DNA of 64,000 bases from Squalus acanthias (taxonomy: Eukaryota). A model generated the notes under the pieces. That model was not told where the DNA came from. It was given only the letters and a program-made list of their open reading frames with translations, and made no database searches. A program made the translations under genes and the position numbers. This document shows, piece after piece, positions 20,701 through 47,066 of this stretch (positions within the stretch are counted from its first letter, which is position 1; each line of letters begins with the position of its first letter). Location of the stretch: positions 156,180,001 through 156,244,000 of the forward strand of contig CM059431.1 in NCBI GenBank assembly GCA_030390025.1, written 5' to 3'.

Positions 20701-21950
20701 TCAGAGTACCGTGAGCTAAACAGAGTGATAGAGTACACTGGGCTACACAGAGTTTCAGAGTACCTTGGACGACACAGAGTGTCAGAGATCATTGGCCTAC
20801 ACAGAGTGTCAGAGTACCCTGGACTACACAGACTATCAGAGTACCCTGGGCTACACAGAGTGTCAGACTACCGTGGAATACACAGAGTGTTAGAGTACCC
20901 TGGACTACACAGAGTGTCAGAGTACAGTGGAATACACAGAGTGTTAGAGTACCTTGGACTACACAGAGTGTCAGAGTACCCTGGTCTGCACAGAGTGTCA
21001 GAGTCTCTTGGACTAAACAGCGTGTCAGAGTAAACTGGACTACTCAGAGTGTCAGAGTACCCTGGACTAAACAGCGTGTCAGAGTAAACTGGACTACACA
21101 GAGTGTCAGAGTAGCGTGGACTACACAGAGTGACAGAGTACACTGGGCTACACAGAGTGTCAGAGTACCGTGGAGTACACGGAGTTTCAGAGTACCGTGT
21201 ACTACACAGAGTGTCAGATTACCGTGGGCTACACAGAGTGACAGAGTACACTGGGCTACACAGAGTGTCAGAGTACTGTGGACTACACGGAGTGTCAGAG
21301 TACCCTGGGCTACACAGAGTGTCAGAGTACCGTGGACTACACAGAGTCTCAGAGTACCCTGGGCTACACAGAGTGTCAGAGTACCCAGGACTACACCGCG
21401 TGTCAGAGTACCCTGGGCTACACAGAGTGTCAGAGAACCCTGGGTACACAGAGTGACAGAGGAACCTGGACTACACAGAGTGTCAGAGTACCTTGGTCTA
21501 CATGGATTGTCAGAGTACCGTGGGCTCCACAGAGTGACAGAGTACACTGGGCTACACAGAGTGTCAGTGTACCCTGGACTACACAAAGTTTCAGAGTACC
21601 TTGGTCTACACTGAGTGTCAGAGTGCCTTGGACTACACAGAGTGTCAGAGTACCGTGATTTAACAGAGTGTCAGAGTACCTTGGACTACACAGAGTGTTA
21701 GAGTACCCTAGGCTACACAGGGCTTCAGAGTACATTGGACTATAAAGAGTGTCAGAATACCGTGGACTACACAGAGGGTCAGAGTATCGTGGATTAACAG
21801 AGTTTCTGAGTACCTTGGACTACGCAGAGTGTCAGAGAACCGTGGGCGACACACATTGTCAGAGTACACTGGGCTACACAGAGTATAAGAGTACCCTGGG
21901 CTACACAGAGTGTCAGAGTACATTGGACTACAAAGAGTGTCAGAGTAACT
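5750..21950. repeat. Domain A ~3-4 kb higher-order repeats (boundaries approximate)
   Basis: The rare landmark TGATTTAAC recurs at 8911, 12872, 16887, 19905 and 21656 (spacings 3961, 4015, 3018, 1751), with matching ORF offsets. Confidence 0.85.
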
Positions 21951-23809
21951 TGGCTACACAGAGTGTCAGAGTAAACTGGGCTACACAGAGTGTCAGAGTT
22001 CCGTGGAATACACAGAGTGTTAGGGTACCCTGGTCTACACAGAGTGTCAGTGTACCTTGGACTACACAGAGTGTCAGAGTACCCTGGACTACACAGAGTG
22101 TCAGAGTACCCTGGACTAAACAGCGTGTCAGAGTAAACTGGACTACACAGAGTTTCAGTGTACCTTGGGCTACACGGAGTGTCAGATTACCGTGGGCGAC
22201 ACAGAGTGACAGAGTACACTGGGCTACACAGAGTGTCAGAGTACCGTGGACTACACAGAGTGTCAGAGTAAACTGGACTACCCAGAGTGTCAGAGTACCC
22301 TGGGTACACAGAGTGACAGAGGACCCTGGACTACACGGAGTGTCAGAGTACCTTGGACTAAACAGAGTGTCAGAGTACCGTGTACAACACAGAGTGTCAG
22401 AGTATCTTGATCTACACAGAGTGTCAGAGTACCGTGAGCTACACAGAGTGACGGAGTACACGGAGCTACACAGAGTGTCAGAGAACCCTGGACTAAACAG
22501 ACTGTCAGAGTACCTTCGTCTGCACAGGGTGTCAGAGTACCGTGGGATAGACAGAGTGACAGAGTACACTGGGCTACACAGAGTGTCTGAGTACCGTGGA
22601 CTACACAGAGTGTCAGTGTACCCTGGACTACACAGAGTGTCAGAGTACCTTGGACTACACGGAGTGTCAGAGTACCGTGGATTACACAGAGTGTCAGAGA
22701 ACCCTGGACTACACAGAATGTCAGAGTACCGTGGGCTACACAGAGTGTCAGAGTACCTTGGACTACACATGGTGTCAGAGTACCTTGGGATACACAGAGT
22801 GTTAGAGTACCCTCCACTGCACAGAGTGTCAGAGAACCCTGTACTACACAGAGTGTCAGAGTACCCTGAACTACACTGAGTGTCAGAGCACCCTGGAATA
22901 CACAGTAGTTTCATCAAACCCTGGACTACACAGAGTGTCAGAGTACCTTGGACTACACAGAGTGTCAGAGTATCCTGGACTACACAGCGTGTCAGATTAA
23001 CCTGGATTTCACAGAGTGTCACAGTACCCTGGACTACACAGAGTGTCAGAGCACCTTGGTCTACACAGAGTGTCAGAGTACCGTGAGCTACACAGAGTGA
23101 CAGATTACACTGGGCGACACAGAGTGTCAGAGTACCCTAGACTAAACAAAGTGGCAGAGTACCTTGGTCTACACAGGGTGTCAAAGTAAAGTGGGATATA
23201 CAGAGTAACAGAGTACACTGAGCGACAGATTGTCAGAGTACCGTGGACTACAGAGTGTTAGAGTACCCTGGGCTGCACAGAGTGTCAGAGTACATTGGAT
23301 TACAAAGAGTGTCAGTGTACCCTGTACTACAATGAGTGTCAGAGTACCCTGGACTACAAAGAGTGTCAGAGTACCGTGGACTACACAGAGTGTCAGAGTA
23401 CCTTGGACTACACAGAATGTCAGTGTACCTTGGGCTAAACAGAGTGTCAGAGTATCCTGGACTACACAGTATGTCAGAGTAAACTGGACTACACAGAGTG
23501 TCAGAATACCCTGGGTACACAGAGTGACAGAGGACCCTGGACTACACGGAGTGTCAGAGTACCTTGAAATACACAGAGTGTCAGAGTACCGTGCACTACA
23601 CAGAGTGTCAGTGTATCTTGATCTACACAGAGTGTCAGAGTACCGTGGGCTACACAGAGTGACAGAGTACACTGAGCTACACAGAGTGACAGAGAACCCT
23701 GGACTAAACAGACTGTCAGAGTACCTTGGTCTGCACATGGTGTCAGAGTATCGTGGGATACACAGAGTGACAGAGTACACTGGGCTACACAGAGTGTCTG
23801 AGTACCGTG

Positions 23810-26480
23810 GACTACACAGTAGTTTCATCAAACCCTGCACTACACAGAGTGTCAGAGTACCGTGGAATACACAGAGTGTTGGAGTACCCTGCACTGCACA
23901 GAGTGTCAGAGAACCCTGGACTACACAGAGTGTCAGAGTACCCTGAACTACACAGAGTGTCAGAGCACCCTGGAATACACAGTAGTTTCATCAACCCCTG
24001 GACTACACAGAGTGTCAGAGTACCTTGGACTACACAGAGTGTCAGAGTATCCTGGATTTCACAGAGTGTCAGAGTACCCTGGGTACACAGAGTGTCAGAG
24101 TACCGTGTACCACACAGAGTGTCAGAACACCATCGTCTACACAGAGTGTCAGAGTACCGTGGGCTACACAGTGTGACAGAGTACAGTGGGCTACACAGAG
24201 TGTCAGAGTCCCCTGGACTAAACAAAGTGTCAGAGTACGTTGGTCTACACAGGGTGTCAGAGTACCGTGGGAGGCACAGAGTGACAGAGTAAACTGGGCA
24301 ACACAGAGTGTCAGAGTACCCTGGACTGCACAGAGTGTTAGAGTACCGTGTACCACACAGAGTGTCAGAACACCATCGTCTACACAGAGTGTCAGAGTAC
24401 CGTGGGCTACACAGTGTGACAGAGTACAGTGGGCTACACAGAGTGTCAGAGTCCCCTGGACTAAACAAAGTGTCAGAGTACGTTGGTCTACACAGGGTGT
24501 CAGAGTACCGTGGGAGGCACAGAGTGACAGAGTATACTGGGCTACACAGAGTGTCAGAGTACCCTGGACTACACAGAGTGTCAGAGTATTCTGGACTACA
24601 CAGCGTGTCAGATTAACCTGGATTACTCAGAGTGTCAGAGTAACCTGGCTACACAGAGTGACAGAGGACCCTGGACTACACGGAGTGTCACAGTACCCTG
24701 GACTACACAGAGTGTCAGAGTACCGTTTACTACACAGAGTGTCAGAGCACCTTGGTCTACACAGAGTGTCAGAGTACCGTGGGCTACACAGAGTGACAGA
24801 TTACACTGGGCGACACAGAGTGTCAGAGTACCCTAGACTAAACAAAGTGTCAGAGTACCTTGATCTACATAGGGTGTCAAAGTAACGTGGGATATACAGA
24901 GTAACAGAGTACACTGGGCTACAGAGTGTCAGAGTACCGTGGACTACACAGAGTGTTAGAGTACCCTGGGCTGCACAGAGTGTCAGAGTACATTGGATTA
25001 CAAAGAGTGTCAGAGTACCCTGGACTAAACAGAGTGTCAGAGTACCCTGGACTACACAGAGTGTCAGAGTACCCTGAACTACACAGAGTGTCAGAGCACC
25101 CTGGAATACACATTAGTTTCATCAAACCCTGGACTACACAGAGTGTCAGAGTACCTTGGACTACACAGAGTGTCAGAGTATCCTGGATTTCACAGAGTGT
25201 CAGAGTACCCTGGGTACACAGAGTGTCAGAGTACCGTGTACCACACAGTAGTTTCATCAAACCCTGCACTACACAGAGTGTCAGAGTACCGTGGAATACA
25301 CAGAGTGTTGGAGTACCCTGCACTGCACAGAGTGTCAGAGAACCCTGGACTACACAGAGTGTCAGAGTACCCTGAACTACACAGAGTGTCAGAGCACCCT
25401 GGAATACACAGTAGTTTCATCAAACCCTGGACTACACAGAGTGTCAGAGTACCTTGGACTAAACAGAGTGTCAGAGTATCCTGGATTTCACAGAGTGTCA
25501 GAGTACCCTGGGTACACAGAGTGTCAGAGTACCGTGTACCACACAGAGTGTCAGAACACCATCGTCTACACAGAGTGTCAGAGTACCGTGGGCTACACAG
25601 TGTGACAGAGTACAGTGGGCTACACAGAGTGTCAGAGTCCCCTGGACTAAACAAAGTGTCAGAGTACGTTGGTCTACACAGGGTGTCAGAGTACCGTGGG
25701 AGGCACAGAGTGACAGAGTAAACTGGGCTACACAGAGTGTCAGAGTACCCTGGACTGCACAGAGTGTTAGAGTACCGTGTACCACACAGAGTGTCAGAAC
25801 ACCATCGTCTACACAGAGTGTTAGAGTACCGTGGGCTACACAGTGTGACAGAGTACAGTGGGCTACACAGAGTGTCAGAGTCCCCTGGACTAAACAAAGT
25901 GTCAGAGTACGTTGGTCTACACAGGGTGTCAGAGTACCGTGGGAGGCACAGAGTGACAGAGTATACTGGGCTACACAGAGTGTCAGAGTACCCTGGACTA
26001 CACAGAGTGTCAGAGTATTCTGGACTACACAGCGTGTCAGATTAACCTGGATTACTCAGAGTGTCAGAGTAACCTGGCTACACAGAGTGACAGAGGACCC
26101 TGGACTACACGGAGTGTCACAGTACCCTGGACTACACAGAGTGTCAGAGTACCGTTTACTACACAGAGTGTCAGAGCACCTTGGTCTTCACAGAGTGTCA
26201 GAGTACCGTGGGCTACACAGAGTGACAGATTACACTGGGCGACACAGAGTGTCAGAGTACCCTAGACTAAACAAAGTGTCAGAGTACCTTGATCTACATA
26301 GGGTGTCAAAGTGACGTGGGATATACAGAGTAACAGAGTACACTGGGCTACAGAGTGTCAGAGTACCGTGGACTACACAGAGTGTTAGAGTACCCTGGGC
26401 TGCACAGAGTGTCAGAGTACATTGGATTACAAAGAGTCTCAGAGTACCCTGGACTAAACAGAGTGTCAGAGTACCCTGGA
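23810..26480. repeat. 1,429-bp higher-order duplication (~53 monomers)
   Basis: ORF offsets 23862/25291, 24308/25737 and 24926/26355 all equal 1429. Confidence 0.85.
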
Positions 26481-29400
26481 CTACACAGAGTGTCAGAGTA
26501 CCCTGGGTACACAGAGTGTCAGAGTACCGTGTACCACACAGAGTTTCAGAACACCATTGTCTACACAGAGTGTCAGAGTGCCGTGGGCTACACAGAGTGA
26601 CAGAGTACACTGAGCTACACAGAGTTTCAGAGTGCCCCGGACTAAACAAAGTGTCAGAGTACGTTGGTCTACACAGTGTGTCAGAGTAGCGTGGGAGGCA
26701 CAGTGTGACAGAGTAAACTGGGCTACACAGAGTGTCAGAGTACCCTGGACTGCACAGAGTGTTAGAGTACCCTGGGCTGCACGGAGTTTCAGAGTACATT
26801 GGATTACAAAGAGTGTCAGAGTACCCTGGACTACACGGAGTGTCAGAGTACCCTGGACTACACAGAGTGTCAGAGTACCCTGGACTACAAAGAGTGTCAA
26901 TGTACCGTGGACTACAGAGAGTGTCAGAGTACCTTGGACTACACAGAATGTCAGATTACCTTGGGCTAAACAGAGTGTCAGAGTATCCTGGACTACACAG
27001 TGTGTCAGAGTAAACTGGACTACACAGAGTGTCAGAGTACCCTGGGTACACAGAGTGACAGAGGACCCTGGACTACACGGAGTGGCAGAGTACCTTGGAC
27101 TACACAGAGTCTCAGAGTACCGTGTACTACACAGAGTGTCAGAGTATCTTGATCTACACAGAGTGTCAGAGTACCGTGGGCTACACAGGGTGTCAGAGTG
27201 CCTTGGAATACACAGAGTGTCAGAGTACCCTGGACTACACAGAGTGTCAGAGTACCATGGACTACACAGATTGTCAGAGAACCTTGTACTACACAGAGTG
27301 TCAGAGTACCGTGGGCTACACAGAGTGATAGAGTACACTTGGCTACATAGAGTGTCAGAGAACCCTGGTATAAACAGACAGTCAGAGTACGTTGTTCTGC
27401 ACAGGGTGTCAGAGTACCGTGGGATACACAGAGTGACAGAGTACACTGGGCTACACAGAGTGTCTGAGTACCGTGGACTACACAAAGTGTCAGTGTACCC
27501 TGGACTACACAGAGTGTCAGAGTACCTTGGACTACACAGAGTGTCAGAGTACCGTGGATTAACAGAGTGCCAGAGTACCGTGGACTACACAGAGTGTCAG
27601 AGAACCTTGGACTACACAGAGTGTCAGAGTACCGTGGGCTACACAGAGTGATAGAGTACACTTGGCTACATAGAGTGTCAGAGTAGCCTGGACTCAACAA
27701 AGTGTCAGAGTATCCTTTGCTCAAAGAGTGTCAGAGTACCGTGGAATTCACAGATTGTTAGAGTACCCTGCACTGCACAGAGTGTCAGAGTACCCTGGAC
27801 TACACAGAGTGTCAGAGTACCCTGAACTGCACAGAGTGTCAGAGCACCCTGGAAAACACAGTAGTTTCATCAAACCCTGGACTACACAGAGTGTCAGAGT
27901 ACCTTGGACTACACAGAGTGTCAGAGTATCCTGGACTACACAGCGTGTCAGATTAACCTGGATTTCACAGAGTGTCAGAGTACCCTCGGTACACAGAGTG
28001 TCAGAGTACCGTGTACCACACAGAGTGTCAGAACACCATGGTCTACGCAGAGTGTCAGAGTACCGTGGGCGACACAGAGTGACAGAGTACACTGGGCTAC
28101 ACAGAGTGTCAGAGTCCCCTGGACTAAACAAAGTGTCAGAGTACGTTGGTCTACACAGGGTGTCAGAGTACCGTGGGAGGCACAGAGTTACAGAGTACAC
28201 TGGGCTACACAGAGTGTCAGAGTACCCTGGACTACACAGAGTGTCAGAGTATCCTGGACTACACAGCGTGTCTGATTAACCTGGATTACACAGGGTGTCA
28301 CAGTAACCTGGGTACACAGAGTGACAGAGGATCCTGGACTACACGGAGTGTCACAGTACCCTGGACTACACAGAGTGTCAGAGTACCGTGTACTATACAG
28401 AGTGTCAGACCACCTTGGTCTACACAGAGTGTCAGAGTACCGTGGGCTACACAGAGTGACAGATTACACTGGGCGACACAGAGTGTCAGAGTAGCCTAGA
28501 CTAAACAAAGTGTCAGAGTACCTTGGTCTACACAGGGTGTCAAAGTAACGTGGGATATACAGAGTAACAGAGTACACTGGGCTACAGAGTGTCAGAGTAC
28601 CGTGGAATACACAGAGTGTTAGAGTACCCTGGGCTGCACAGAGTGTCAGAGTACATTGGATAACAAAGAGTGTCAGAGTACCCTGGACTAAACAGAGTGT
28701 CAGAGTATCCTGGACTACACAGTGTGACAGAGTAAACTGGACTACACAGAGTGCCAGTGTACCCTGGGTACACAGAGTGACAGAGGACCCTGGAATACAC
28801 GGAGTGTCAGAGTACCTTGGACTACACAGAGTGACAGAATACCGTGTACTACACAGAGTGTCAGAGTATCTTGATCTACACAGAGTGTCAGAGTACCGTG
28901 GGCTACATAGAGTGACAGTGTACACTGAGCTACACAGAGTGTCAGAGAACCCTGGTATAAACAGACAGTCAGAGTACGTTGGTCTGCACAGGGTGTCAGA
29001 GTACCGTGGGATACACAGAGTGACAGAGTACACTGGGCTACACAGAGTGTCTGAGTACCGTGGACTACACAGAGTGTCAGTGTACCCTGGACTACACAGA
29101 GTGTCAGAGTACCTTGGACTACACAGAGTGTCAGAGTACCGTGGATTAACAGAGTGCCAGAGTACCGTGGACTACACAGAGTGTCAGAGAACCTTGGACT
29201 ACACAGAGTGTCAGAGTGCCGTGGGCTACACAGAGTGTCAGAGTGCCTTGGAATACACAGAGTGTCAGAGTACCCTGGACTACACAGAGTGTCAGAGTAC
29301 CATGGACTACACAGATTGTCAGAGAACCTTGTACTACACAGAGTGTCAGAGTACCGTGGGCTACACAGAGTGATAGAGTACACTTGGCTCGATAGAGTGT

Positions 29401-31553
29401 CAGAGTAGCCAGGACTACACAAAGTGTCAGAGTATCCTTTGCTCAAAGAGTGTCAGAGTACCGTGGAATTCACAGAGTGTTAGAGTACACTGCACTGCAC
29501 AGAGTGTCAGAGTACCCTGGACTACACAGAGTGTCAGAGTACCCTGAACTACACAGAGTGTCAGAGCACCCTGGAAAACACAGTAGTTTCATCAAACCCT
29601 GGACTACACAGAGTGTCAGAGTACCTTGGACTACACAGAGTGTCAGAGTATCCTGGACTACACAGCGTGTCAGATTAACCTGGATTTCACAGAGTGTCAG
29701 AGTACCCTCGGTACACAGAGTGTCAGAGTACCGTGTACCACACAGAGTGTCTGAACACCATGGTCGACACAGAGTGTCAGAGTACCGTGGGCGACACAGA
29801 GTGACAGAGTACACTGGGCTACACAGAGTGTCAGAGTCCCCTGGACTAAACAAAGTGTCAGAGTACGTTGGTCTACACAGGGTGTCAGAGTACCGTGGGA
29901 GGCACAGAGTGACAGAGTACACTGGGCTGCACAGAGTGTCAGAGTACCGTGGGCTAAACAGAGTGATAGAGTACACTTGGCTACATAGAGTGTCAGAGTA
30001 CCCTGGACTACACAAAGTGTCAGAGTATCCTTTGCTACACAGAGTGTCAGAGTACCGTGGAATACACAGAGTGTTAGAGTACCCTGCACTACACAGAGAG
30101 TCAGAGTACCCTGGACTACACAGAGTGTCAGAGTACCCTGAACTACACAGAGTGTCAGAGCACCCTGGAATACACAATAGTTTCATCAAACCCTGGACTA
30201 CACAGAGTGTCAGAGTACCTTGGACTACACAGAGTGTCAGAGTATCCTGGACTACACAGCGTGTCAGATTAACCTGGATTTCACAGAGTGTCAGAGTACC
30301 CTGGGTACACAGAGTGTCAGAGTACCGTGTACCACACAGAGTGTCAGAACACCATGGTCTACACAGAGTGTCAGAGTACCGTGGGCTACACAGAGTGACA
30401 GAGTACACTGGGCTACACAAAGTGTCAGAGTCCCCTGGACTAAACAAAGTGTCAGAGTACGTTGGTCTACACAGGGTGTCAGAGTACCGTGGGAGGCACA
30501 GAGTGACAGAGTACACTGGGCTACACAGAGTGTCAGAGTATCCTGGACTACACAGCGTGTCAGATTAACCTGGATTACACAGAGTGTCAGAGTAACCTGG
30601 CTACACAGAGTGACAGAGGACCCTGGACTACACGGAGTGTCACAGTACCCTGGACTACACAGAGTGTCAGAGTACCGTTTACTACACAGAGTTTCAGAGC
30701 ACCTTGGTCTACACAGAGTGTCAGAGTACAGTGGGCTACACAGAGTGACAGATTACACTGGGCGACACAGAGTGTCAGAGTACCATAGACTAAACAAAGT
30801 GTCAGACTACCTTGATCTACACAGGGTGTCAAAGTAACGTGGGATATACAGAGTAACAGAGTACACTGGGCTACAGAGTGTCAGAGTACCGTGGACTACA
30901 CAGAGTGTTAGAGTACCCTGGGCTGCACAGAGTGTCAGAGTACATTGGATTACAAAGAGTGTCAGAGTACCCTGGACTAAACAGAGTGTCAGAGTACCCT
31001 GGACTACACAGAGTGTCAGAGTACACTGGGTACACAGAGTGTCAGAGTACCGTGTACTACACAGAGTGTCAGAACACCATTGTCTACAGAGAGTGTCAGA
31101 GTGCCGTGGGCTACACAGAGTGACAGAGTACACTGAGCTACACAGAGTGTCAGAGTCCCCTGGACTAAACAAAGTGTCAGAGTACGTTGGTCTACACAGT
31201 GTTTCAGAGTACCGTGGGAGGCACAGAGTGACAGAGTATACTGGGCTACACAGAGTGTCAGAGTACCCTGGACTACACAGAGTGTTAGAGTACCCAGGGC
31301 TGCACAGAGTTTCAGAGTACATTGGATTACAAAGAGTGTCAGAGTACCCTGGACTACACAGAGTGTCAGAGTACCGTGGACTACACAGAGTGTCAGAGTA
31401 CCTTGGACTACACAGAATGTCAGATTACCTTGGGCTAAACAGAGTGTCAGAGTATCCTGGACTACACAGTGTGTCAGAGTAAACTGGACTACACAGAGTG
31501 TCAGAGTACCCTGGGTACACAGAGTGACAGAGGACCCTGGACTACACGGAGTG

Positions 31554-31688
31554 ATGCGGAGATGCCGGTGTTGGACTGGGGTGGACAAAATTGAGAGGTC
31601 GCACAACACCAGGTTATAGTCCAACAGTTTTATTTGAAATCACAAGCTTTCGGAGCTATCGATTTGCTCCTTCCTCAGGTGAAGTAAA
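31554..31688 (-). mobile_element. Short non-autonomous insertion (Penelope-like pLTR fragment / retrozyme-like) inside one satellite monomer
   Basis: Non-satellite sequence splits CACGGAGTG|TCAGAG. TG is present on both sides (31552-3, 31689-90). Homologous sites at 34762/3 and 37780/1 are empty. It contains a hammerhead core. Confidence 0.88.
31640..31682 (-). ncRNA. Minimal type-I hammerhead ribozyme motif
   Basis: Minus strand reads UCAC-CUGAGGA-A-GGAGC(AAAUCGAUA)GCUCC-GAAA-GC-U-U-GUGA: stem I UCAC/GUGA, CUGAnGA box, 5-bp stem II, GAAA box, palindromic AGCU mini stem III. Confidence 0.85.
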
Positions 31689-34600
31689 TGTCAGAGTACC
31701 TTGGACTACACAGAGTCTCAGAGTGCCGTGTACTACACAGAGTGTCAGAGTATCTTGATCTACACAGAGTGTCAGAGTACCGTGGGCTACACAGAGTGAC
31801 AGAGTACACTGAGCTACACAGAGTGTCAGAGTATCTTGATCTACACAGAGTGTCAGAGTAGCCTGGACTACACAAAGTGTCAGAGTATCCTTTGCTACAC
31901 AGAGTGTCAGAGTACCGTGGAATTCACAGAGTGTTAGAGTACCCTGCACTGCACAGAGTGTCAGAGTACCCTGAACTACACAGAGTGTCAGAGCACCCTG
32001 GAATACACAGTAGTTTCATCAAACTCTGGACTACACAGAGTGTCAGAGTACCTTGGACTACACAGAGTGTCAGAGTATCCTGGACTACACAGCGTGTCAG
32101 ATTAACCTGGATTTCACAGAGTGTCAGAATACCCTGGGTACACAGAGTGTCAGAGTACCGTGTACCACACAGAGTGTCTGAACACCATGGTCTACACAGA
32201 GTGTCAGAGTACCGTGGGCTACACAGAGTGACAGAGTATACTGGGCTACACAGAGTGTCAGAGTCCCCTGGACTAAACAAAGTGTCAGAGTACGTTGGTC
32301 TACACAGGGTGTCAGAGTACCGTGGGAGGCACAGAGTGACAGAGTACACTGGGCTACACAGAGTGTCAGAGTACCCTGGACTACACAGAGTGTCAGAGTA
32401 TCCTGGACTACACAGCGTGTCAGATTACCGTGGGCTACACAGAGTGACAGAGTACACTGGGCTACACAGTGTGTCAGAGTACCGTGGACTACACGGAGTG
32501 TCACAGTACCCTGGGCTACACAGAGTGTCAGAGTACCGTGGGCTACACAGAGTGATAGAGTACACTTGGCTACATAGAGTGTCAGAGTAGCCTGGACTAC
32601 ACAAAGTGTCAGAGTATCCTTTGCTCAAAGAGTGTCAGAGTACCGTGGAATTCACAGAGTGTTAGAGTACACTGCACTGCACAGAGTGTCAGAGTACCCT
32701 GGACTACACAGAGTGTCAGAGTACCCTGAACTACACAGAGTGTCAGAGCACCCTGGAAAACACAGTAGTTTCATCAAACCCTGGACTACACAGAGTGTCA
32801 GAGTACCTTGGACTACACAGAGTGTCAGAGTATCCTGGACTACACAGCGTGTCAGATTAACCTGGATTTCTCAGAGTGTCAGAGTACCCTCGGTACACAG
32901 AGTGTCAGAGTACCGTGTACCACACAGAGTGTCTGAAAACCATGGTCTACACAGAGTGTCAGAGTACCGTGGGCGACACAGAGTGACAGAGTACACTGGG
33001 CTACACAGAGTGTCAGAGTCCCCTGGACTAAACAAAGTGTCAGAGTACGTTGGTCTACACAGGGTGTCAGAGTACCGTGGGAGGCACAGAGTGACAGAGT
33101 ACACTGGGCTACACAGAGTGTCAGAGTACCGTGGGCTAAACAGAGTGATAGAGTACACTTGGCTACATAGAGTGTCAGAGTACCCTGGACTACACAAAGT
33201 TTCAGAGTATCCTTTGCTACACAGAGTGTCAGAGTACCGTGGAATACACAGAGTGTTAGAGTACCCTGCACTACACAGAGAGTCAGAGTACCCTGGACTA
33301 CACAGAGTGTCAGAGTACCCTGAACTACACAGAGTGTCAGAGCACCATGGAATACACAGTAGTTTCATCAAACCCTGGACTACACAGAGTGTCAGAGTAC
33401 CTTGGACTACACAGAGTGTCAGAGTATCCTGGACTACACAGCGTGTCAGATTAACCTGGATTTCACAGAGTGTCAGAGTACCCTGGGTACAAAGAGTGTC
33501 AGAGTACCGTGTACCACACAGAGTGTCAGAACACCATGGTCTACACAGAGTGTCAGAGTACCTTGGACTACACAGACTCTCAGAGTGCCGTGTACTACAC
33601 AGAGTGTCAGAGTCCCCTGGACTAAACAAAGTGTCAGAGTACGTTGGTCTACACAGGGTGTCAGAGTACCGTGGGAGGCACAGAGTGACAGAGTACACTG
33701 GGCTACACAGAGTGTCAGAGTACCCTGGACTACACAGAGTGTCAGAGTATCCTGGACTACACAGCGTGTCAGATTAACCTGGATTACACAGAGTGTCAGA
33801 GTAACCTGGCTACACAGAGTGACAGAGGACCCTGGACTACACGGAGTGTCACAGTACCCTGGACTACACAGAGTGTCAGAGTACCGTTTACTACACAGAG
33901 TTTCAGAGCACCTTGGTCTACACAGAGTGTCAGAGTACCGTGGGCTACACAGAGTGACAGATTACACTGGGCGACACAGAGTGTCAGAGTACCCTAGACT
34001 AAGCAAAGTGTCAGACTACCTTGATCTACACAGGGTGTCAAAGTAACGTGGGATATACAGAGTAACAGAGTACACTGGGCTACAGAATTTCAGAGTACCG
34101 TGGACTACACAGAGTGTTAGAGTACCCTGGGCTGCACAGAGTGTCAGAGTACATTGGATTACAAAGAGTGTCAGAGTACCCTGGACTAAACAGAGTGTCA
34201 GTGTACCCTGGACTACACAGAGTGTCAGAGTACCCTGGGTACACAGAGTGTCAGAGTACCGTGTACCACACAGAGTGTCAGAACACCATTGTCTACACAG
34301 AGTGTCAGAGTGCCGTGGGCTACACAGAGTGACAGAGTACACTGAGCTACACAGAGTGTCAGAGTCCCCTGGAATAAACAAAGTGTCAGAGTACGTTGGT
34401 CTATTCAGTGTGTCAGAGTACCGTGGGAGGCACAGAGTGACAGAGTATACTGGGCTACACAGAGTGTCAGAGTACCCTGGACTACACAGAGTGTTAGAGT
34501 ACCCAGGGCTGCACAGAGTTTCAGAGTACATTGGATTACAAAGAGTGTCAGAGTACCCTGGACTACACAGAGTGTCAGAGTACCGTGGACTACACAGAGT

Positions 34601-37600
34601 GTCAGAGTACCTTGGACTACACAGAATGTCAGATTACCTTGGGCTAAACAGAGTGTCAGAGTATCCTGGACTACACAGTGTGTCAGAGTAAACTGGACTA
34701 CACAGAGTGTCAGAGTACCCTGGGTACACAGAGTGACAGAGGACCCTGGACTACACGGAGTGTCAGAGTACCTTGGACTACACAGACTCTCAGAGTGCCG
34801 TGTACTACACAGAGTGTCAGAGTATCTTGATCTACACAGAGTGTCAGAGTACCGTGGGCTACACAGAGTGACAGAGTACACTGAGCTACACAGAGTGTCA
34901 GAGTATCTTGATCTACACAGAGTGTCAGAGTACCCTGGACTACACAGAGTGTCAGAGTAGCCTGGACTACACAAAGTGTCAGAGTATCCTTTGCTACACA
35001 GAGTGTCAGAGTACCGTGGAATTCACAGAGTGTTAGAGTACCCTGCACTGCACAGAGTGTCAGAGTACCCTGAACTACACAGAGTGTCAGAGCACCCTGG
35101 AATACACAGTAGTTTCATCAAACCCTGGACTACACAGAGTGTCAGAGTACCTTGGACTACACAGAGTGTCAGAGTATCCTGGACTACACAGCGTGTCAGA
35201 TTAACCTGGATTTCACAGAGTGTCAGAATACCCTGGGTACACAGAGTGTCAGAGTACCGTGTACCACACAGAGTGTCTGAACACCATGGTCTACACAGAG
35301 TGTCAGAGTACCGTGGGCTACACAGAGTGACAGAGTACACTGGGCTACACAGAGTGTCAGAGTCCCCTGGACTAAACAAAGTGTCAGAGTACGTTGGTCT
35401 ACACAGGGTGTCAGAGTACCGTGGGAGGCACAGAGTGACAGAGTACACTGGGCTACACAGAGTGTCAGAGTATCCTGGACTACACAGCGTGTCAGATTAC
35501 CGTGGGCTACACAGAGTGACAGAGTACACTGGGCTACACAGTGTGTCAGAGTACCGTGGACTACACGGAGTGTCACAGTACCCTGGGCTACACAGAGTGT
35601 CAGAGTACCGTGTGCTACACAGAGTGATAGAGTACACTTGGCTACATAGAGTGTCAGAGTAGCCTGGACTACACAAAGTGTCAGAGTATCCTTTGCTCAA
35701 AGAGTGTCAGAGTACCGTGGAATTCACAGAGTGTCAGAGTACCCTGGACTACACAGAGTGTCAGAGCACCCTGGAAAACACAGTAGTTTCATCAAACCCT
35801 GGACTACACAGAGTGTCAGAGTACCTTGGACTACACAGAGTGTCAGAGTATCCTGGACAACACAGCGTGTCAGATTAACCTGGATTTCACAGAGTGTCAG
35901 AGTACCCTCGGTACACAGAGTGTCAGAGTACCGTGTACCACACAGAGTGTCTGAACACCATGGTCTACACAGAGTGTCAGAGTACCGTGGGCGACACAGA
36001 GTGACAGAGTACACTGGGCTACACAGAGTGTCAGAGTCCCCTGGACTAAACAAAGTGTCAGAGTACGTTGGTCTACACAGGGTGTCAGAGTACCGTGGGA
36101 GGCACAGAGTGACAGAGTACACTGGGCTACACAGAGTGTCAGAGTACCGTGGGCTAAACAGAGTGATAGAGTACACTTGGCTACATAGAGTGTCAGAGTA
36201 CCCTGGACTACACAAAGTGTCAGAGTATCCTTTGCTGCACAGAGTGTCAGAGTACCGTGGAATACACAGAGTGTTAGAGTACCCTGCACTACACAGAGAG
36301 TCAGAGTACCCTGGACTACACAGAGTGTCAGAGTACCCTGAACTACACAGAGTGTCAGAGCACCCTGGAATACACAGTAGTTTCATCAAACCCTGGACTA
36401 CACAGAGTGTCAGAGTACCTTGGACTACACAGAGTGTCAGAGTATCCTGGACTACACAGCGTGTCAGATTAACCTGGATTTCACAGAATGTCAGAGTGCC
36501 CTGGGTACACAGTGTGTCAGAGTACCGTGTACCACACAGAGTGTCAGAACACCATGGTCTACACAGAGTGTCAGAGTACCGTGGGCTACACAGAGTGACA
36601 GAGTACACTGGGCTACACAAAGTGTCAGAGTCCCCTGGACAAAACAAAGTGTCAGAGTACGTTGGTCTACACAGGGTGTCAGAGTACCGTGGGAGGCACA
36701 GAGTGACAGAGTACACTGGGCTACACAGAGTGTCAGAGTACCCTGGACTACACAGAGTGTCAGAGTATCCTGGACTACACAGCGTGTCCGATTAACCTGG
36801 ATTACACAGAGTGTCAGAGTAACCTGGCTACACAGAGTGACAGAGGACCCTGGAATACACGGAGTGTCACAGTACCCTGGACTACACAGAGTGCCAGAGT
36901 ACCGTTTACTACACAGAGTTTCAGAGCACCTTGGTCTGCACAGAGTGTCAGAGTACCGTGGGCTACACAGAGTGACAGATTACACTGGGCGACACAGAGT
37001 GTCAGAGTACCCTAGACTAAACAAAGTGTCAGACTACCTTGATCTACACAGGGTGTCAAAGTAACGTGGGATATACAGAGTAACAGAGTACACTGGGCTA
37101 CAGAGTGTCAGAGTACCGTGGACTACACAGAGTGTTAGAGTACCCTGGGCTGCACAGAGTGTCAGAGTACATTGGATTACAAAGAGTGTCAGAGTACCCT
37201 GGACTAAACAGAGTGTCAGAGTACCCTGGACTACACAGAGTGTCAGAGTACCCTGGGTACACAGAGTGTCAGAGTACCGTGTACCACACAGAGTGTCAGA
37301 ACACCATTGTCTACACAGAGTGTCAGAGTGCCGTGGGCTACACAGAGTGACAGAGTACACTGAGCTACACAGAGTGTCAGAGTCCCCTGGACTAAACAAA
37401 GTGTCAGAGTACGTTGGTCTACACAGTGTGTCAGAGTACCGTGGGAGGCACAGAGTGACAGAGTATACTGGGCTACACAGAGTGTCAGAGTTCCCTGGAC
37501 TACACAGAGTGTTAGAGTACCCAGGGCTGCACAGAGTTTCAGAGTACATTGGATTACAAAGAGTGTCAGAGTACCCTGGACTACACAGAGTGTCAGAGTA

Positions 37601-38540
37601 CCGTGGACTACACAGAGTGTCAGAGTACCTTGGACTACACAGAATGTCAGATTACCTTGGGCTAAACAGAGTGTCAGAGTATCCTGGACTGCACAGTGTG
37701 TCAGAGTAAACTGGACTACACAGAGTGTCAGAGTACCCTGGGTACACAGAGTGACAGAGGACCCTGGACTACACGGAGTGTCAGAGTACCTTGGACTACA
37801 CAGACTCTCAGAGTGCCGTGTACTACACAGAGTGTCAGAGTCCCCTGGACTAAACAAAGTGTCAGAGTACGTTGGTCTGCACAGTGTGTCAGAGTACCGT
37901 GGGAGGCACAGAGTGACAGAGTATACTGGGCTACACAGAGTGTCAGAGTACCCTGGACTACACAGAGTGTTAGAGTACCCAGGGCTGCACAGAGTTTCAG
38001 AGTACATTGGATTACAAAGAGTGTCAGAGTACCCTGGACTACACAGAGTGTAAGAGTACCGTGGACTACACAGAGTGTCAGAGTACCTTGGACTACACAG
38101 AATGTCAGATTACCTTGGGCTAAACAGAGTGTCAGAGTATCCTGGACTACACAGTGTGTCAGAGTAAACTGGACTACACAGAGTGTCAGAGTACCCTGGT
38201 TACACAGAGTGACAGAGGACCCTGGACTACACGGAGTGTCAGAGTACCTTGGACAACACAGACTCTCAGAGTGCCGTGTACTACACAGAGTGTCAGAGTA
38301 TCTTGATCTACACAGAGTGTCAGAGTACCGTGGGCTACACAGAGTGACAGAGTACACTGAGCTACACAGAGTGTCAGAGTATCTTGATCTACACAGAGTG
38401 TCAGAGTACCCTGGACTACACAGAGTGTCAGAGTAGCCTGGACTACACAAAGTGTCAGAGTATCCTTTGCTACACAGAGTGTCAGAGTACCGTGGAATTC
38501 ACAGAGTGTTAGAGTACCCTGCACTGCACAGTGTGTCAGA

Positions 38541-41500
38541 GTACCCTGAACTACACAGAGTGTCAGAGCACCCTGGAATACACAGTAGTTTCATCAAACC
38601 CTGGACTACACAGAGTGTCAGAGTACCTTGGACTACACAGAGTGTCAGAGTATCCTGGACTACACAGCGTGTCAGATTAACCTGGATTTCACAGAGTGTC
38701 AGAATACCCTGGGTACACAGAGTGTCAGAGTACCGTGTACCACACAGAGTGTCTGAACACCATGGTCTACACAGAGTGTTAGAGTACCGTGGGCTACACA
38801 GAGTGACAGAGTACAGTGGGCTTCACAGAGTGCCAGAGTCCCCTGGACTAAACAAAGTGTCAGAGTACGTTGGTCTACACAGGGTGTCAGAGTACCGTGG
38901 GAGGCACAGAGTGACAGAGTAAACTGGGCTACACAGAGTGTCAGAGTACCCTGGACTACACAGAGTGTCAGAGTATCCTGGGCTACACAGCGTGTCAGAT
39001 TAACCTGGATTACACAGAGTGTCAGAGTAACCTGGGTACACAGAGAGACAGAGGACCCTGGACTACACGGAGTGTCACAGTACCCTGGACTACACAGAGT
39101 GTCAGAGTACCGTGTACTACACAGAGTGTCAGAGCACCTTGGTATACACAGAGTGTCAGAGTACCGTGGGCTACACAGAGTGACAGATTACACTGAGCGA
39201 CACTGAGTGTCAGGGTACCCTAGACTAAACAAAGTGTCAGAGTACCTTGATCTACACAGGGTGTCAAAGTAACGTGGGATATACAGAGTAACAGAGTACA
39301 CTGGGCTACAGAGTGTCAGAGTACCGTGGACTACACAGAGTGTTAGAGTACCCTGGGCTGCACAGAGTGTCAGAGTACATTGGATTACAAAGAGTGTCAG
39401 AGTACCATGAACTACACAGAGTGTCAGAGTACCTTGGACTACACAGAATGTCAGAGTACCTTGGGCTAAACAGAGTGTCAGAGTATCCTGGACTACACAG
39501 TGTGACAGAGTAAACTGGACTACACAGAGTGTCAGAGTACCCTGGGTACACAGAGTGACAGAGGACCCTGGAATACACGGAGTGTCAGAGTACCTTGGAC
39601 TACACAGAGTGTCAGAGTACCGTGTACTACACAGAGTGTCAGAGTATCTTGATCTACACAGAGTGTCAGAGAACCCTGGTATAAACAGACTGTCAGAGTA
39701 CGTTGGTCTGCACAGGGTGTCAGAGTACCGTGGGATACACAGAGTGACAGAGTACACTGGGCTACACAGAGTGTCTGAGTACCGTGGACTACACAGAGTG
39801 TCAGTGTACCCTGGACTACACAGAGTGTCAGAGTACCTTGGACTACACAGAGTGTCAGAGTACCGTGGATTAACAGAGTGTCAGAGTACCGTGGACTACA
39901 CAGAGTTTCAGAGAACCTTGGAGTACACAGAGTGTCAGTGTACCGTGGGCTACACAGAGTGCCAGAGTGCCTTGGAATACACAGTGTCAGAGTACCTGGA
40001 CTACACAGAGTGTCAGAGTACCATGGACTACACAGATTGTCAGAGAACATTGTACTACACAGAGTGTCAGATTACCGTTGTCTAAACAGAGTGATAGAGT
40101 ACACTTGGCTACATAGAGTTTCAGAGTACCCTGGACTACACAAAGTGTCAGAGTATCCTTTGCTACACAGAGTGTCAGAGTACCGTGGAATACACAGAGT
40201 GTTAGAGTACCCTGCACTACACAGAGTGTCAGAGTACCCTGGACTACACAGAGTGTCAGAGTACCCTGAACTACACAGAGTGTCAGAGCACCCTGGAATA
40301 CACAGTAGTTTCATCAAACCCTGGACTACACAGAGTGTCAGAGTACCTTGGACTACACAGAGTGTCAGAGTATCCTGGACTGCATAGCGTGTCAGATTAA
40401 CTTGGATTTCACAGAGTGTCAGAGTACCCTGGGTACACAGAGTGTCAGAGTACCGTGTACCACACAGAGTGTCAGAACACCATTGTCTACACAGAGTGTC
40501 AGAGTACCGTGGGCTACACAGAGTGACAGAGTACACTGGGCTACACAGAGTGTCAGAGTCCCCTGGACTAAACAAAGTTTCAGAGTACGTTGGTCTACAC
40601 AGGTTGTCAGAGTACCGTGGGAGGCACAGAGTGACAGAGTACACTGGGCTACACAGAGTGTCAGAGTACCCTGGACTACACGGAGTGTCACAGTAACCTG
40701 GACTACACAGAGTGTCAGAGTACCGTGTACTACACAGAGTGTCAGAGCACCTTGGTCTACACAGGGTGTCAAAGTAACGTGGGATACACAGAGTGACAGA
40801 GTACACTGGGCTACAGAGTGTCAGAGTACCGTGGACTACAAAGAGTGTCACAGTACCCTGGACTACACAGAGTGTCAGAGTACCGTGTACTACACAGAGT
40901 GTCAGAGCACCTTGGTCTACACAGAGTTTCAGAGTACCGTGGGCTGCACAGAGTGACTGATTACACTGGGCGACACAGAGTGTCAGAGTACCCTAGCCTA
41001 AACAAAGTGTCAGAGTACCTTGGTCTACACAGGGTGTCAAAGTAACGTGGGATATACAGAGTAACAGAGTACACTGGGCTACAGAGTGTCAGAGTACCGT
41101 GGACTACACAGAGTGTTAGAGTACCCTGGGCTGCACAGAGTGTCAGAGTACATTGGATTACAAAGAGTATCAGAGTACCCTGGACTAAACAGAGTGTCAG
41201 AGTACCCTGGACTACACAGAGTGTCAGAGTACCCTGGACTACAAAGAGTGTCAGAGTACCGTGGACTACACAGAGTGTCAGAGTACCTTGGACTACACAG
41301 AATGTCAGAGTACCTTGAGCTAAACAGAGTGTCAGAGTATCCTGGACTACACAGTGTGTCAGAGTAAACTGGACTACACAGAGTGTCAGAGTAACCTGGG
41401 TACACAGAGTGACAGAGGACCCTGGACTACACGGAGTGTCACAGTACCCTGGACTACACAGAGTGTCAGAGTACCGTGTACTACACAGAGTGTCAGAGCA

Positions 41501-44500
41501 CCTTGGTCTACACAGAGTGTCAGAGTACCGTGGGCTACACAGAGTGACTGATTACACTGGGCGACACAGAGTGTCAGAGTACCCTAGACTAAACAAAGTG
41601 TCAGAGTACCTTGGTCTACACAGGGTGTCAAAGTAACGTGGGATACACAGAGTGACAGAGTACACTGGGCTACAGAGTATCAGAGTACCGTGGACTACAC
41701 AGAGTGTTAGAGTACCCTGGGCTGCACAGAGTGTCGGAGTACATTGGATTACAAAGAGTGTCAGAGTTCCCTGGACTACACAGAGTTTCAGAGTACCCTG
41801 GACTACACAGAGTGTCAGAGTACCATGGACTACAAAGAGTGTCAGAGTACCGTGGACTACACAGAGTGTCAGAGTACCTTGGACTTCACAGAATATCAGA
41901 GTACCTTGGGCTAAACAGAGTGATAGAGTACACTGGGCTACATAGAGTGTCAGAGTACCCTGGACTACACAGAGTGTCAGAGTACCCTGGGCTACACAGA
42001 GTGTCAGAGTACCGTGGAATACACAGAGTGTTAGAGTACCCTGGTCTCCAGAGAGTGTCAGATTACCTTGGACTACACAGAGTGTCAGAGTATCCTGGAC
42101 TACACTGTGTGTCAGAGTAAACTGGACTACACAGAGTGTCAGAGTACCCTGGGTACACAGAGTGACAGAGGACCCTGGACTACACGGAGTGTCAGAGTAC
42201 CTTGGACTACACAGAGTGTCAGAGTACCGTGTACTACACAGAGTGTCAGAGTACCGTGGGCTACACAGGGTGACAGAGTACACTGAGCTACACAGAGTGT
42301 CAGAGAACCCTGGAGTAAACAGACTGTCAGAGTACCTTGATCTGCACAGGGTGTCAGAGTACCGTGGGATACACAGAGTGACAGAGTACACTGGGCTACA
42401 CAGAGTGTCTGAGTACCGTGGACTACACAGAGTATCAGTGTACCCTGGACTACACAGAGTGTCAGAGTACCTTGGACTACACAGAGTGTCAGAGTACCGT
42501 GGATTAACAGAGTGTCAGAGTACCGTGGACTACACAGAGTGTTAGAGTACCCTGGGCTACAAAGGGCTTCAGAGTACATTGGACTATGAAGAGTGTCAGA
42601 ATACCCTGGACTACACAGAGTGTCCGAGTACCCTGGACTACACAGAGTGTCAGAGTACCCTGGACTACACAGAGTGTCAGAGTACCGTGGACTACACAGA
42701 GTGTCAGAGTACCGTGGACTGCACAGAGTGTCAGAGTACCCTGGACTACACAGAGTGTCAGTGTACCCTGAACTACACAGAGTGTCAGAGCACCCTGGAA
42801 TACACAGTAGTTTCATCAAACCCTGGACTACACAGAGTGTCAGAGTACCTTGGACTACACAGAGTGTCAGAGTATCCTGGACTACACAGCGTGTCAGATT
42901 AACCTGGATTTCACAGAGTGTCAGAATACCCTGGGTACACAGAGTGTCAGAGTACCGTGTACCACACAGAGTGTCTGAACACCATGGTCTACACAGAGTG
43001 TTAGAGTACCGTGGGCTACACAGAGTGACAGAGTACACTGGGCTTCACAGAGTGCCAGTGTCCCCTGGACTAAACAAAGTGTCAGAGTACGTTGGTCTAC
43101 ACAGGGTGTCAGAGTACCGTGGGAGGCACAGAGTGACAGAGTAAACTGGGCTACACAGAGTGTCAGAGTACCCTGGACTACACAGAGTGTCAGAGTATCC
43201 TGGGCTACACAGCGTGTCAGATTAACCTGGATTACACAGAGTGTCAGAGTAACCTGGGTACACAGAGAGACAGAGGACCCTGGACTACACGGAGTGTCAC
43301 AGTACCCTGGACTACACAGAGTGTCAGAGTACCGTGTACTACACAGAGTGTCAGAGCACCTTGGTATACACAGAGTGTCAGAGTACCGTGGGCTACACAG
43401 AGTGACAGATTACACTGAGCGACACTGAGTGTCAGGGTACCCTAGACTAAACAAAGTGTCAGAGTACCTTGATCTACACAGGGTGTCAAAGTAACGTGGG
43501 ATATACAGAGTAACAGAGTACACTGGGCTGCAGAGTGTCAGAGTACCGTGGACTACACAGAGTGTTAGAGTACCCTGGGCTGCACAGAGTGTCAGAGTAC
43601 ATTGGATTACAAAGAGTGTCAGAGTACCCTGGAATAAACAGAGTGTCAGAGTACCCTGGACTACACAGAGTGTCAGAGTACCCTGGACTACAAAGAGTGT
43701 CAGAGTACCATGAACTACACAGAGTGTCAGAGTACCTTGGACTACACAGAATGTCAGAGTACCTTGGGCTAAACAGAGTGTCAGAGTATCCTGGACTACA
43801 CAGTGTGACAGAGTAAACTGGACTACACAGAGTGTCAGAGTACCCTGGGTACACAGAGTGACAGAGGACCCTGGAATACACGGAGTGTCAGAGTACCTTG
43901 GACTACACAGAGTGTCAGAGTACCGTGTACTACACAGAGTGTCAGAGTATCTTGATCTATACAGAGTGTCATAGAACCCTGGTATAAACAGACTGTCAGA
44001 GTACGTTGGTCTGCACAGGGTGTCAGAGTACCGTGGGATACACAGAGTGACAGAGTACACTGGGCTACACAGAGTGTCTGAGTACCGTGGACTACACAGA
44101 GTGTCAGTGTACCCTGGACTACACAGAGTGTCAGAGTACCTTGGACTACACAGAGTGTCAGAGTACCGTGGATTAACAGAGTGTCAGAGTACCGTGGACT
44201 ACACAGAGTTTCAGAGAACCTTGGAGTACACAGAGTGTCAGTGTACCGTGGGCTACACAGAGTGCCAGAGTGCCTTGGAATACACAGTGTCAGAGTACCC
44301 TGGACTACACAGAGTGTCAGAGTACCATGGACTACACAGATTGTCAGAGAACATTGTACTACACAGAGTGTCAGATTACCGTTGTCTAAACAGAGTGATA
44401 GAGTACACTTGGCTACATAGAGTTTCAGAGTACCCTGGACTACACAAAGTGTCAGAGTATCCTTTGCTACACAGAGTGTCAGAGTACCGTGGAATACACA

Positions 44501-47066
44501 GAGTGTTAGAGTACCCTGCACTACACAGAGTGTCAGAGTACCCTGGACTACACAGAGTGTCAGAGTACCCTGAACTACACAGAGTGTCAGAGCACCCTGG
44601 AATACACAGTAGTTTCATCAAACCCTGGACTACACAGAGTGTCAGAGTACCTTGGACTACACAGAGTGTCAGAGTATCCTGGACTGCATAGCGTGTCAGA
44701 TTAACTTGGATTTCACAGAGTGTCAGAGTACCCTGGGTACACAGAGTGTCAGAGTACCGTGTACCACACAGAGTGTCAGAACACCATTGTCTACACAGAG
44801 TGTCAGAGTACCGTGGGCTACACAGAGTGACAGAGTACACTGGGCTACACAGAGTGTCAGAGTCCCCTGGACTAAACAAAGTTTCAGAGTACGTTGGTCT
44901 ACACAGGGTGTCAGAGTACCGTGGGAGGCACAGAGTGACAGAGTACACTGGGCTACACAGAGTGTCAGAGTACCCTGGACTACACGGAGTGTCACAGTAA
45001 CCTGGACTACACAGAGTGTCAGAGTACCGTGTACTACACAGAGTGTCAGAGCACCTTGGTCTACACAGGGTGTCAAAGTAACGTGGGATACACAGAGTGA
45101 CAGAGTACACTGGGCTACAGAGTGTCAGAGTACCGTGGACTACAAAGAGTGTCACAGTACCCTGGACTACACAGAGTGTCAGAGTACCGTGTACTACACA
45201 GAGTGTCAGAGCACCTTGGTCTACACAGAGTTTCAGAGTACCGTGGGCTGCACAGAGTGACTGATTACACTGGGCGACACAGAGTGTCAGAGTACCCTAG
45301 CCTAAACAAAGTGTCAGAGTACCTTGGTCTACACAGGGTGTCAAAGTAACGTGGGATATACAGAGTAACAGAGTACACTGGGCTACAGAGTGTCAGAGTA
45401 CCGTGGACTACACAGAGTGTTAGAGTACCCTGGGCTGCACAGAGTGTCAGAGTACATTGGATTACAAAGAGTATCAGAGTACCCTGGACTAAACAGAGTG
45501 TCAGAGTACCCTGGACTACACAGAGTGTCAGAGTACCCTGGACTACAAAGAGTGTCAGAGTACCGTGGACTACACAGAGTGTCAGAGTACCTTGGACTAC
45601 ACAGAATGTCAGAGTACCTTGAGCTAAACAGAGTGTCAGAGTATCCTGGACTACACAGTGTGTCAGAGTAAACTGGACTACACAGAGTGTCAGAGTAACC
45701 TGGGTACACAGAGTGACAGAGGACCCTGGACTACACGGAGTGTCACAGTACCCTGGACTACACAGAGTGTCAGAGTACCGTGTACTACACAGAGTGTCAG
45801 AGCACCTTGGTCTACACAGAGTGTCAGAGTACCGTGGGCTACACAGAGTGACTGATTACACTGGGCGACACAGAGTGTCAGAGTACCCTAGACTAAACAA
45901 AGTGTCAGAGTACCTTGGTCTACACAGGGTGTCAAAGTAACGTGGGATACACAGAGTGACAGAGTACACTGGGCTACAGAGTATCAGAGTACCGTGGACT
46001 ACACAGAGTGTTAGAGTACCCTGGGCTGCACAGAGTGTCGGAGTACATTGGATTACAAAGAGTGTCAGAGTTCCCTGGACTACACAGAGTTTCAGAGTAC
46101 CCTGGACTACACAGAGTGTCAGAGTACCATGGACTACAAAGAGTGTCAGAGTACCGTGGACTACACAGAGTGTCAGAGTACCTTGGACTTCACAGAATAT
46201 CAGAGTACCTTGGGCTAAACAGAGTGATAGAGTACACTGGGCTACATAGAGTGTCAGAGTACCCTGGACTACACAGAGTGTCAGAGTACCCTGGGCTACA
46301 CAGAGTGTCAGAGTACCGTGGAATACACAGAGTGTTAGAGTACCCTGGTCTCCAGAGAGTGTCAGATTACCTTGGACTACACAGAGTGTCAGAGTATCCT
46401 GGACTACACTGTGTGTCAGAGTAAACTGGACTACACAGAGTGTCAGAGTACCCTGGGTACACAGAGTGACAGAGGACCCTGGACTACACGGAGTGTCAGA
46501 GTACCTTGGACTACACAGAGTGTCAGAGTACCGTGTACTACACAGAGTGTCAGAGTACCGTGGGCTACACAGGGTGACAGAGTACACTGAGCTACACAGA
46601 GTGTCAGAGAACCCTGGAGTAAACAGACTGTCAGAGTACCTTGATCTGCACAGGGTGTCAGAGTACCGTGGGATACACAGAGTGACAGAGTACACTGGGC
46701 TACACAGAGTGTCTGAGTACCGTGGACTACACAGAGTATCAGTGTACCCTGGACTACACAGAGTGTCAGAGTACCTTGGACTACACAGAGTGTCAGAGTA
46801 CCGTGGATTAACAGAGTGTCAGAGTACCGTGGACTACACAGAGTGTTAGAGTACCCTGGGCTACAAAGGGCTTCAGAGTACATTGGACTATGAAGAGTGT
46901 CAGAATACCCTGGACTACACAGAGTGTCCGAGTACCCTGGACTACACAGAGTGTCAGAGTACCCTGGACTACACAGAGTGTCAGAGTACCGTGGACTACA
47001 CAGAGTGTCAGAGTACCGTGGACTGCACAGAGTGTCAGAGTACCCTGGACTACACAGAGTGTCAGT
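38541..47066. repeat. Terminal tandem duplication: 4,222-bp and 4,304-bp copies, junction ~42,763
   Basis: Offsets 39313/43535 = 4222, then 40072/44376, 41086/45390 and 42579/46883 = 4304. Copy 2 has three extra monomers plus 1 bp. Confidence 0.9.

Follow-up and report, generated by a model that had tools for sequence, protein, structure and literature searches.

A short hammerhead-bearing insertion in a satellite array of Squalus acanthias, most likely the truncated end of a Penelope-like element

The window analysed here, a stretch of 64,000 nucleotides of Squalus acanthias DNA, begins with 47,243 bp of satellite that is built from 1,754 copies of a 27-bp unit. When every 27-mer of this array was scored against the commonest unit, the sole long non-satellite run was found at about 31,554-31,688, and the remaining low-match runs proved to be short divergent monomers. 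No second copy of the insert was found in the window. A lone ribozyme element had originally been predicted at this place, and it is indeed the only long foreign run in 47 kb of array; it is lone in the window only, however, and its family is very abundant. The coordinates of the insertion, of its parts and of its satellite context are given in Table 1.

Table 1. Features of the insertion and of its satellite context. L002 is a related locus from a marine metagenome.
Feature	Position in window	Strand	Basis or remark
Host satellite array	1..47243	+	27-bp unit; higher-order blocks of ~3 kb near the site
Whole insertion, very probably a Penelope-like element's end module of 137 nt (pLTR terminus)	31552..31688	-	no open frame on the ribozyme strand
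Hammerhead region	31640..31682	-	pattern and folding
Stem I 5' arm, UCAC	31679..31682	-	folding; one compensatory change in L002
Core CUGAGGA plus extra A between A9 and G10.1	31671..31678	-	pattern, published consensus
Stem II GGAGC/GCUCC (31666-31670 with 31652-31656), 9-nt loop (31657-31665)	31652..31670	-	folding
GAA, palindromic AGCU (31645-31648), U17	31644..31651	-	cleavage predicted between 31644 and 31643
Stem I 3' arm, GUGA	31640..31643	-	folding
9-bp hairpin (arms 31618-31626 and 31569-31577, 40 nt between)	31569..31626	-	L002 keeps the spacing
Possible optional 40-nt 'tail' of the Penelope-like element	31552..31591	-	between the main end at 31552 and a weaker end near 31592
TG common to target and family terminus	31552..31553	+	either 2 nt of microhomology or the left copy in a 2-bp duplication
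Target TG at the element 5' junction	31689..31690	+	T possibly element-templated too
Empty sister sites	34761..34762; 37779..37780; 38237..38238	+	flank comparison

At its edge (47,243-48,230) the satellite fades gradually. It is followed on the plus strand by decayed LINE reverse transcriptase fragments (48,230-50,730; Pfam RVT_1, E = 1.7e-11), which we take to be CR1/L2-like and which are apparently split at about 48,960-49,640 by an insert of unrelated sequence whose inverted ends are imperfect. Worn satellite-like units return past the LINE (50,780-51,800), and older insertions have therefore broken the margin of the array. Further on, positions 59,000-62,850 of the minus strand hold an NLR-type immune gene with NACHT, winged-helix and HD2 matches over several frames and with leucine-rich stretches beyond them; this gene looks frameshifted.

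The filled site reads GGAGTG[135 nt]TGTCAG, and three sister sites elsewhere in the array are empty and read GGAGTGTCAG. Near the four sites (31,553, 34,762, 37,780 and 38,238) the satellite is organized in higher-order blocks of about 3.0-3.1 kb that diverge by about 1.2% when 1 kb is compared. Since a self-search for long higher-order blocks returned the self match alone, the sisters were compared by outward walks. Relative to the filled site, the sister at 34,762 showed 0 mismatches in 300 and 13 in 1,000 positions on the left and 1 in 170 on the right, the sister at 37,780 showed 12 in 1,000 on the left and 25 in 170 on the right, and the sister at 38,238, a third empty site that was absent from the original prediction, showed 4 in 400 on the left and 2 in 170 on the right. 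Over 1 kb on the left, the first two thus differ from the filled site by about 1.2%. On the right, collinearity is lost within 70-205 nt of the site. The element had been said to be missing from the copies at 34,762 and 37,780, and both sites were found empty between collinear flanks. These empty sisters support a recent insertion that followed their duplication, as had been proposed, and a single gain would be the simplest account, although the insert may alternatively have been removed from the sisters by conversion.

The same comparison bears on the junctions, for which a 2-nt TG duplication or microhomology and an element of about 135 bp had been proposed. TG does stand on both sides of an interval of 135 nt, but the left TG is also the family's own terminus. 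Because the family ends sharply at position 31,552, this TG is element sequence and the copy measures 137 bp. The junction sequence would fit a blunt insertion with 137 bp of element, and equally a duplication of 2 bp accompanied by microhomology. None of the contigs listed from four public sequencing runs bridges either junction, so the locus rests on the assembly. As satellite arrays are hard to assemble, one might suppose that no retrotransposition took place at this site and that we are looking at an assembly error or at a DNA-repair patch from another locus. However, one end of the insertion coincides exactly with the family terminus, its flanks align collinearly with those of three empty sisters, and the target has lost no bases; we therefore consider such an origin highly improbable.

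The minimal type-I hammerhead that had been predicted on the minus strand was borne out. The order on this strand is UCAC, CUGAGGA, the extra A, GGAGC/GCUCC with its 9-nt loop, GAAAGCUU and GUGA, which amounts to a 4-bp stem I, an extra A, a 5-bp stem II and an AGCU palindrome. The predicted stem III stood in part: the palindrome is present, but a true stem III is not, and there is no intramolecular helix III. The core CUGANGA...GAAAN..UH is found in the insert together with stems I and II, for which pair probabilities of 0.82-0.97 were predicted, and the modelled fold supports the expected cleavage after GAAAGCUU. Only one of 200,000 shuffles of the element matched the hammerhead descriptor. 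A looser core pattern occurred at two places in the window, and two occurrences were reached in 6 of 100 shuffles.

A comparison with published minimal hammerheads points in the same direction. As described in PMC4209133, these motifs are marked by an extra base, a G10.1-C11.1 pair and a palindrome, and the insert resembles them in being of type I, in carrying an extra base after A9 (A9/10.1), the G10.1-C11.1 pair and palindromic positions 15.2-16.2, in lacking helix III, and in its short stem I, U-rich upstream sequence and single copy; the letters of its stem I are identical to those of the lamprey example given there. It differs from them in its stem II of 5 bp and in its loop II of 9 nt, the commoner family form having 3 nt. 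One supplement file of that article holds no shark terms. With Rfam, a search against which had been suggested as a check, no hammerhead was obtained on the element at E ≤ 10, the lone match being mir-879 by chance (E = 3.2), and nothing in the whole window reached the gathering score; such silence would be expected for a motif without helix III. Folding z-scores against shuffles were weak for the element (-0.46), the hammerhead (-0.96) and the hairpin region (-1.07), and folding stability is therefore no evidence. On the ribozyme strand, none of the reading frames stays open over the length of the element.

Could the hammerhead act where it now lies? It had been proposed that it cuts antisense satellite transcripts at a defined site, and one may imagine that the insertion works, or was retained, as a processing site on minus-strand satellite RNA. 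Its core is intact, folding predicts stems I and II, and the family sequence occurs in a presumed RNA run, so that partner copies might exist in trans. Yet helix III is missing, and published experience with such motifs is discouraging: the single minimal hammerheads described in PMC4209133 did not cleave and their dimers cleaved little, eight of nine Xenopus dimers were inactive (bioRxiv 10.64898/2026.07.22.740005), and the anole ribozyme cuts only in the presence of its protein (PMC11167929). In our models the active two-copy fold (-21.7 kcal/mol) was not favoured over two monomers (-22.6 kcal/mol) or over the best cofold (-33.3 kcal/mol). As this is one young copy among 1,754 monomers, the intactness of its core reflects its age. 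Because in print lone motifs are inactive and dimers weak or mostly inactive, and because the active dimer fold is not favoured, cutting of satellite RNA is unsupported and, in our judgement, extremely improbable. With no helix III and no partner copy in the window, the modelled ribozyme is probably silent here.

When the hammerhead descriptor was scanned against public contigs, three metagenome loci (L001-L003) were obtained but no viral or prokaryote locus. An exact 22-23-nt motif of the element gave no match in viral, metagenome or prokaryote genome contigs, and Rfam reported no hammerhead in L001-L003. The marine metagenome locus L002 contains at positions 523-677 the C-terminus of a Penelope-like element (PLE) endonuclease, comprising the last ~50 codons and frameshifted, which matched the endonuclease of L003 (E = 9e-7) and the PLE-like reverse transcriptase-endonuclease proteins P0001 (E = 6e-4) and P0002 (E = 0.003). 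After a spacer of ~200 nt, the same hammerhead and hairpin follow. The spacings within the module are nearly identical in the insert and in L002 (26 versus 27 and 48 versus 47 nt), and the similarity between the two amounts to 79% over 53 nt. L002 (1-1663) is a low-coverage contig in which the PLE piece (about 520-1000) is flanked by stretches unrelated to the element, and it is possibly chimeric.

L003 carries a frame with a CxxxxCxxC motif and a GIY-YIG domain that is 44% and 47% identical to P0001 and P0002, respectively, and on the same strand as this frame a closely similar hammerhead, with an inverted piece between them. L001 overlaps L003 and has a reverse transcriptase fragment on the opposite strand. 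L003 (1-1470) and L001 (374-1050) have 677 nt in common at 99.6%; in L003, 109 nt of PLE coding sequence are also present as an inverted duplicate, and the contig stops on an ATG some 100 nt past the hammerhead. We found no viral locus that encodes a relative of the L003 endonuclease. In L002 the module thus follows a PLE endonuclease on its 3' side, both being on one strand, and the same holds for L003 apart from an intervening inversion; the link between module and PLE frame rests on L002, a single low-coverage contig. A CX2-5CxxC linker, a motif common to Neptune and Nematis, precedes the endonuclease in L003, P0001 and P0002, and judging from these sequences the source element was probably of the Neptune type.

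A decayed PLE from a different family is present in the window too, on the plus strand (51,979-53,830), with reverse transcriptase, cysteine linker and GIY-YIG domain interrupted by stops and frameshifts. Its frame (51,979-53,430) is followed by a spacer of ~290 nt and by a worn minimal hammerhead (53,722-53,757) with a G-U pair at the base of stem II and a broken palindrome, a layout that matches the one described above. No solved structure was found to match this frame.

Across the rows available for comparison, 17 of 18 cells of the 9-bp hairpin were paired, and no two-sided change was seen. The hairpin may serve as a recognition or start structure for the reverse transcriptase. Covariation in the hammerhead consisted of one compensatory pair (stem I, L002) and one G-U change in four rows, of which two are near-identical and in which stem II was fixed by the search pattern; 109 of 500 shuffles reached as much.

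The family was then considered in public sequencing runs. Among the 24 runs listed, 15 hold at least half of 14 sampled words (four organisms and two unlabelled runs), and four of these 15 (X7, X6, X2 and X15) were analysed; X16-X24, with small shares, were left out. Expressed as matching contigs and not as summed contig depth, abundance amounted to 11,643 in X7, 1,122 in X6, 2,126 in X2 and 700 in X15. X2 is presumed to be an RNA run. In all four runs the family breaks off sharply at position 31,552, with 164 (X7), 25 (X6), 27 (X2) and 15 (X15) contigs leaving into unrelated flanks at an agreement of 0.38-0.49. In each run the loose-end consensus ends in TCA, from which the ribozyme strand would have an ATG at its terminus. 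This ATG might be the start of the PLE frame, although a target preference would look identical. Among the rows listed, weaker loose ends were found at 31,592 in X2 (15 contigs) and X15 (4 contigs) and at 31,589 in X6 (2 contigs), with none listed for X7, and depth increases past 31,592; these ends may mark an optional PLE tail of 40 nt. One X7 contig has a joint from 31,583 to 31,552 with 15 other letters between, which suggests a short head-to-tail repeat of the terminus.

All five indels among those listed fall in loop II, and the six listed substitution rows (31,590, two at 31,591, 31,597, 31,600 and 31,628) sit in the hairpin loop or the linker and none in the core, the stems or the hairpin arms, coverage of the 5' half being biased. 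The commoner form of the family combines a 3-nt loop II with C at N7, which is also the letter that the loose-end consensus gives there in most runs; stem II includes a G-U pair in some copies. Towards the 5' end, the majority of the listed loose ends share their sequence as far as about 31,685 and differ beyond it, a second group departs already in stem I, and some extend several bases beyond the end of our copy; contigs cannot separate a fixed from a ragged 5' end. The X7 loose-end consensus, a contig of depth 1,108 in X6 and a contig in X15 run upstream past the 5' end of our copy. X2 and X7 both contain a joint to the opposite strand, and in X2 one loose end folds back at 31,642; these features, each supported by 1-2 contigs, fit the inverted copies that are typical of PLEs. 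No autonomous partner of the exact family was seen among the short contigs of the four runs, and a literature search, with Repbase and Dfam outside its range, found no published description of the family.

Two origins of this family have to be weighed. The original prediction had favoured a distinct, non-coding mobile unit and had named a 5'-shortened PLE copy as the fallback. A separate family of about 135 nt, either SINE-like or a non-LTR retrozyme monomer, would propagate from short masters or tandem arrays with PLE proteins supplied in trans, and its high copy number, its fixed 3' end and the diversity that sets in a few bases upstream of stem I would be consistent with it. Moreover, retrozymes, as far as they have been described, stem from PLE pLTRs, occur in the sole cartilaginous fish sampled, have consensus lengths of 51-972 bp in different species and are commonly found as monomers. 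The vertebrate non-LTR retrozymes reported in bioRxiv 10.64898/2026.07.22.740005 resemble the insert in being short, non-coding, related to PLE pLTRs and equipped with a type I hammerhead. They are, however, defined by at least two tandem units, each with its own ribozyme, whereas our copy is single in the window and has a 5' end that lies off the cleavage site, unlike a unit excised by its ribozyme. In addition, contigs of X7, X6 and X15 continue upstream as noted, the L002 module is attached to coding sequence, and neither a tandem unit nor a promoter of its own has been shown. We therefore regard a separate family as unlikely. The layout of L002, the fixed 3' end and the upstream-continuing contigs make the former fallback the better reading, namely that an abundant PLE with an endonuclease, probably of the Neptune type, very probably gave rise to the insert as a short copy of its terminal module (pseudo-LTR end) that was dead on arrival.

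Insertions of this kind are known. In metazoans, the minimal hammerheads of PLE pLTRs described in PMC4209133 are mostly single dispersed motifs that probably derive from truncated PLEs. With the solo pLTRs and 5'-truncated insertions of endonuclease-bearing (EN+) PLEs reported in PMC3846280 and PMC8557442, our insert has in common a heavy 5' truncation, a short or absent target duplication, microhomology at the junction, inverted copies in the family and possibly an optional tail of 30-40 bp, and it differs from them in being extremely short and in having no inverted partner. It is thus most likely a real insertion of a known kind, a truncated EN+ PLE with a minimal hammerhead.

A mechanism may be borrowed from the anole element Poseidon PAc of Anolis carolinensis, whose protein is reported to nick DNA and to initiate reverse transcription at internal positions of the RNA that lie 111-118 nt into a frame opening at stem II; these start sites coincide with the genomic ends, and the main template is uncut RNA (PMC11167929). 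In our family, 119 nt separate the beginning of stem II from the family end (113 nt with the 3-nt loop), and 92 nt separate the cut site from that end. In both systems, then, genomic copies stop at fixed positions some 111-119 nt after stem II begins, a stem-loop lies close to the end, the hammerhead enters the DNA uncut, and there may be two ends with a tail between them. They are unlike in that the PAc frame starts at stem II, whereas no frame crosses our module and the ATG would lie at its terminus, in that PAc prefers AT-rich targets, whereas the satellite target is not AT-rich, and in that relatives of the insert have a cysteine linker of the Neptune/Nematis type.

Accommodating the insert to this scheme, a PLE protein would bind the element RNA near the conserved hairpin, and its GIY-YIG domain would nick the satellite at TG. 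Reverse transcription would then start internally, at a constant position 92 nt beyond the ribozyme cut site and perhaps with the help of a 2-nt pairing, would pass through the uncut hammerhead and would end 10 nt beyond the core, after which repair would join the 5' end to the target. As the 5' end of the copy indeed lies 10 nt before the core, the template was uncut at this ribozyme. The 5' end itself may reflect early termination or a start of the RNA at this position, and we see little to choose between the two. The proposal that a PLE-type minimal hammerhead was moved by a PLE reverse transcriptase with a GIY-YIG endonuclease is in these respects supported by the sequence comparisons.

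If the RNA started there, the copy might be a defined run-off product, made by reverse transcription from the internal site of the first pLTR to the 5' end of the RNA (~135 nt) and inserted alone, like retroviral strong-stop DNA. We advance this only tentatively and would rather wager against it; here its basis is the 5' end of a single copy and a family that diversifies just upstream of stem I. PLE transcripts are reported to start within the pLTR in Drosophila and Chlamydomonas, and our literature search found no strong-stop model for PLEs.

As a single locus, the insertion carries little weight, since lone minimal hammerheads from truncated PLEs were already described in 2014 (PMC4209133). 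Its value lies in a clean young insertion with matched empty sites, in which both junctions are fixed to the base and which marks one satellite block. The family as a whole is a natural test of the internal-initiation model that was developed in vitro for the anole element. Should 5' ends prove to cluster some 10 nt upstream of the core, the run-off model would have a bearing on why PLEs leave ribozyme-sized copies in such numbers and on whether the ribozyme cuts the template. If true, it would mean that the PLE transcript starts some 10 nt upstream of the core and that uncut RNA serves as the template in vivo, and it would explain the flood of single minimal hammerheads in animal genomes.
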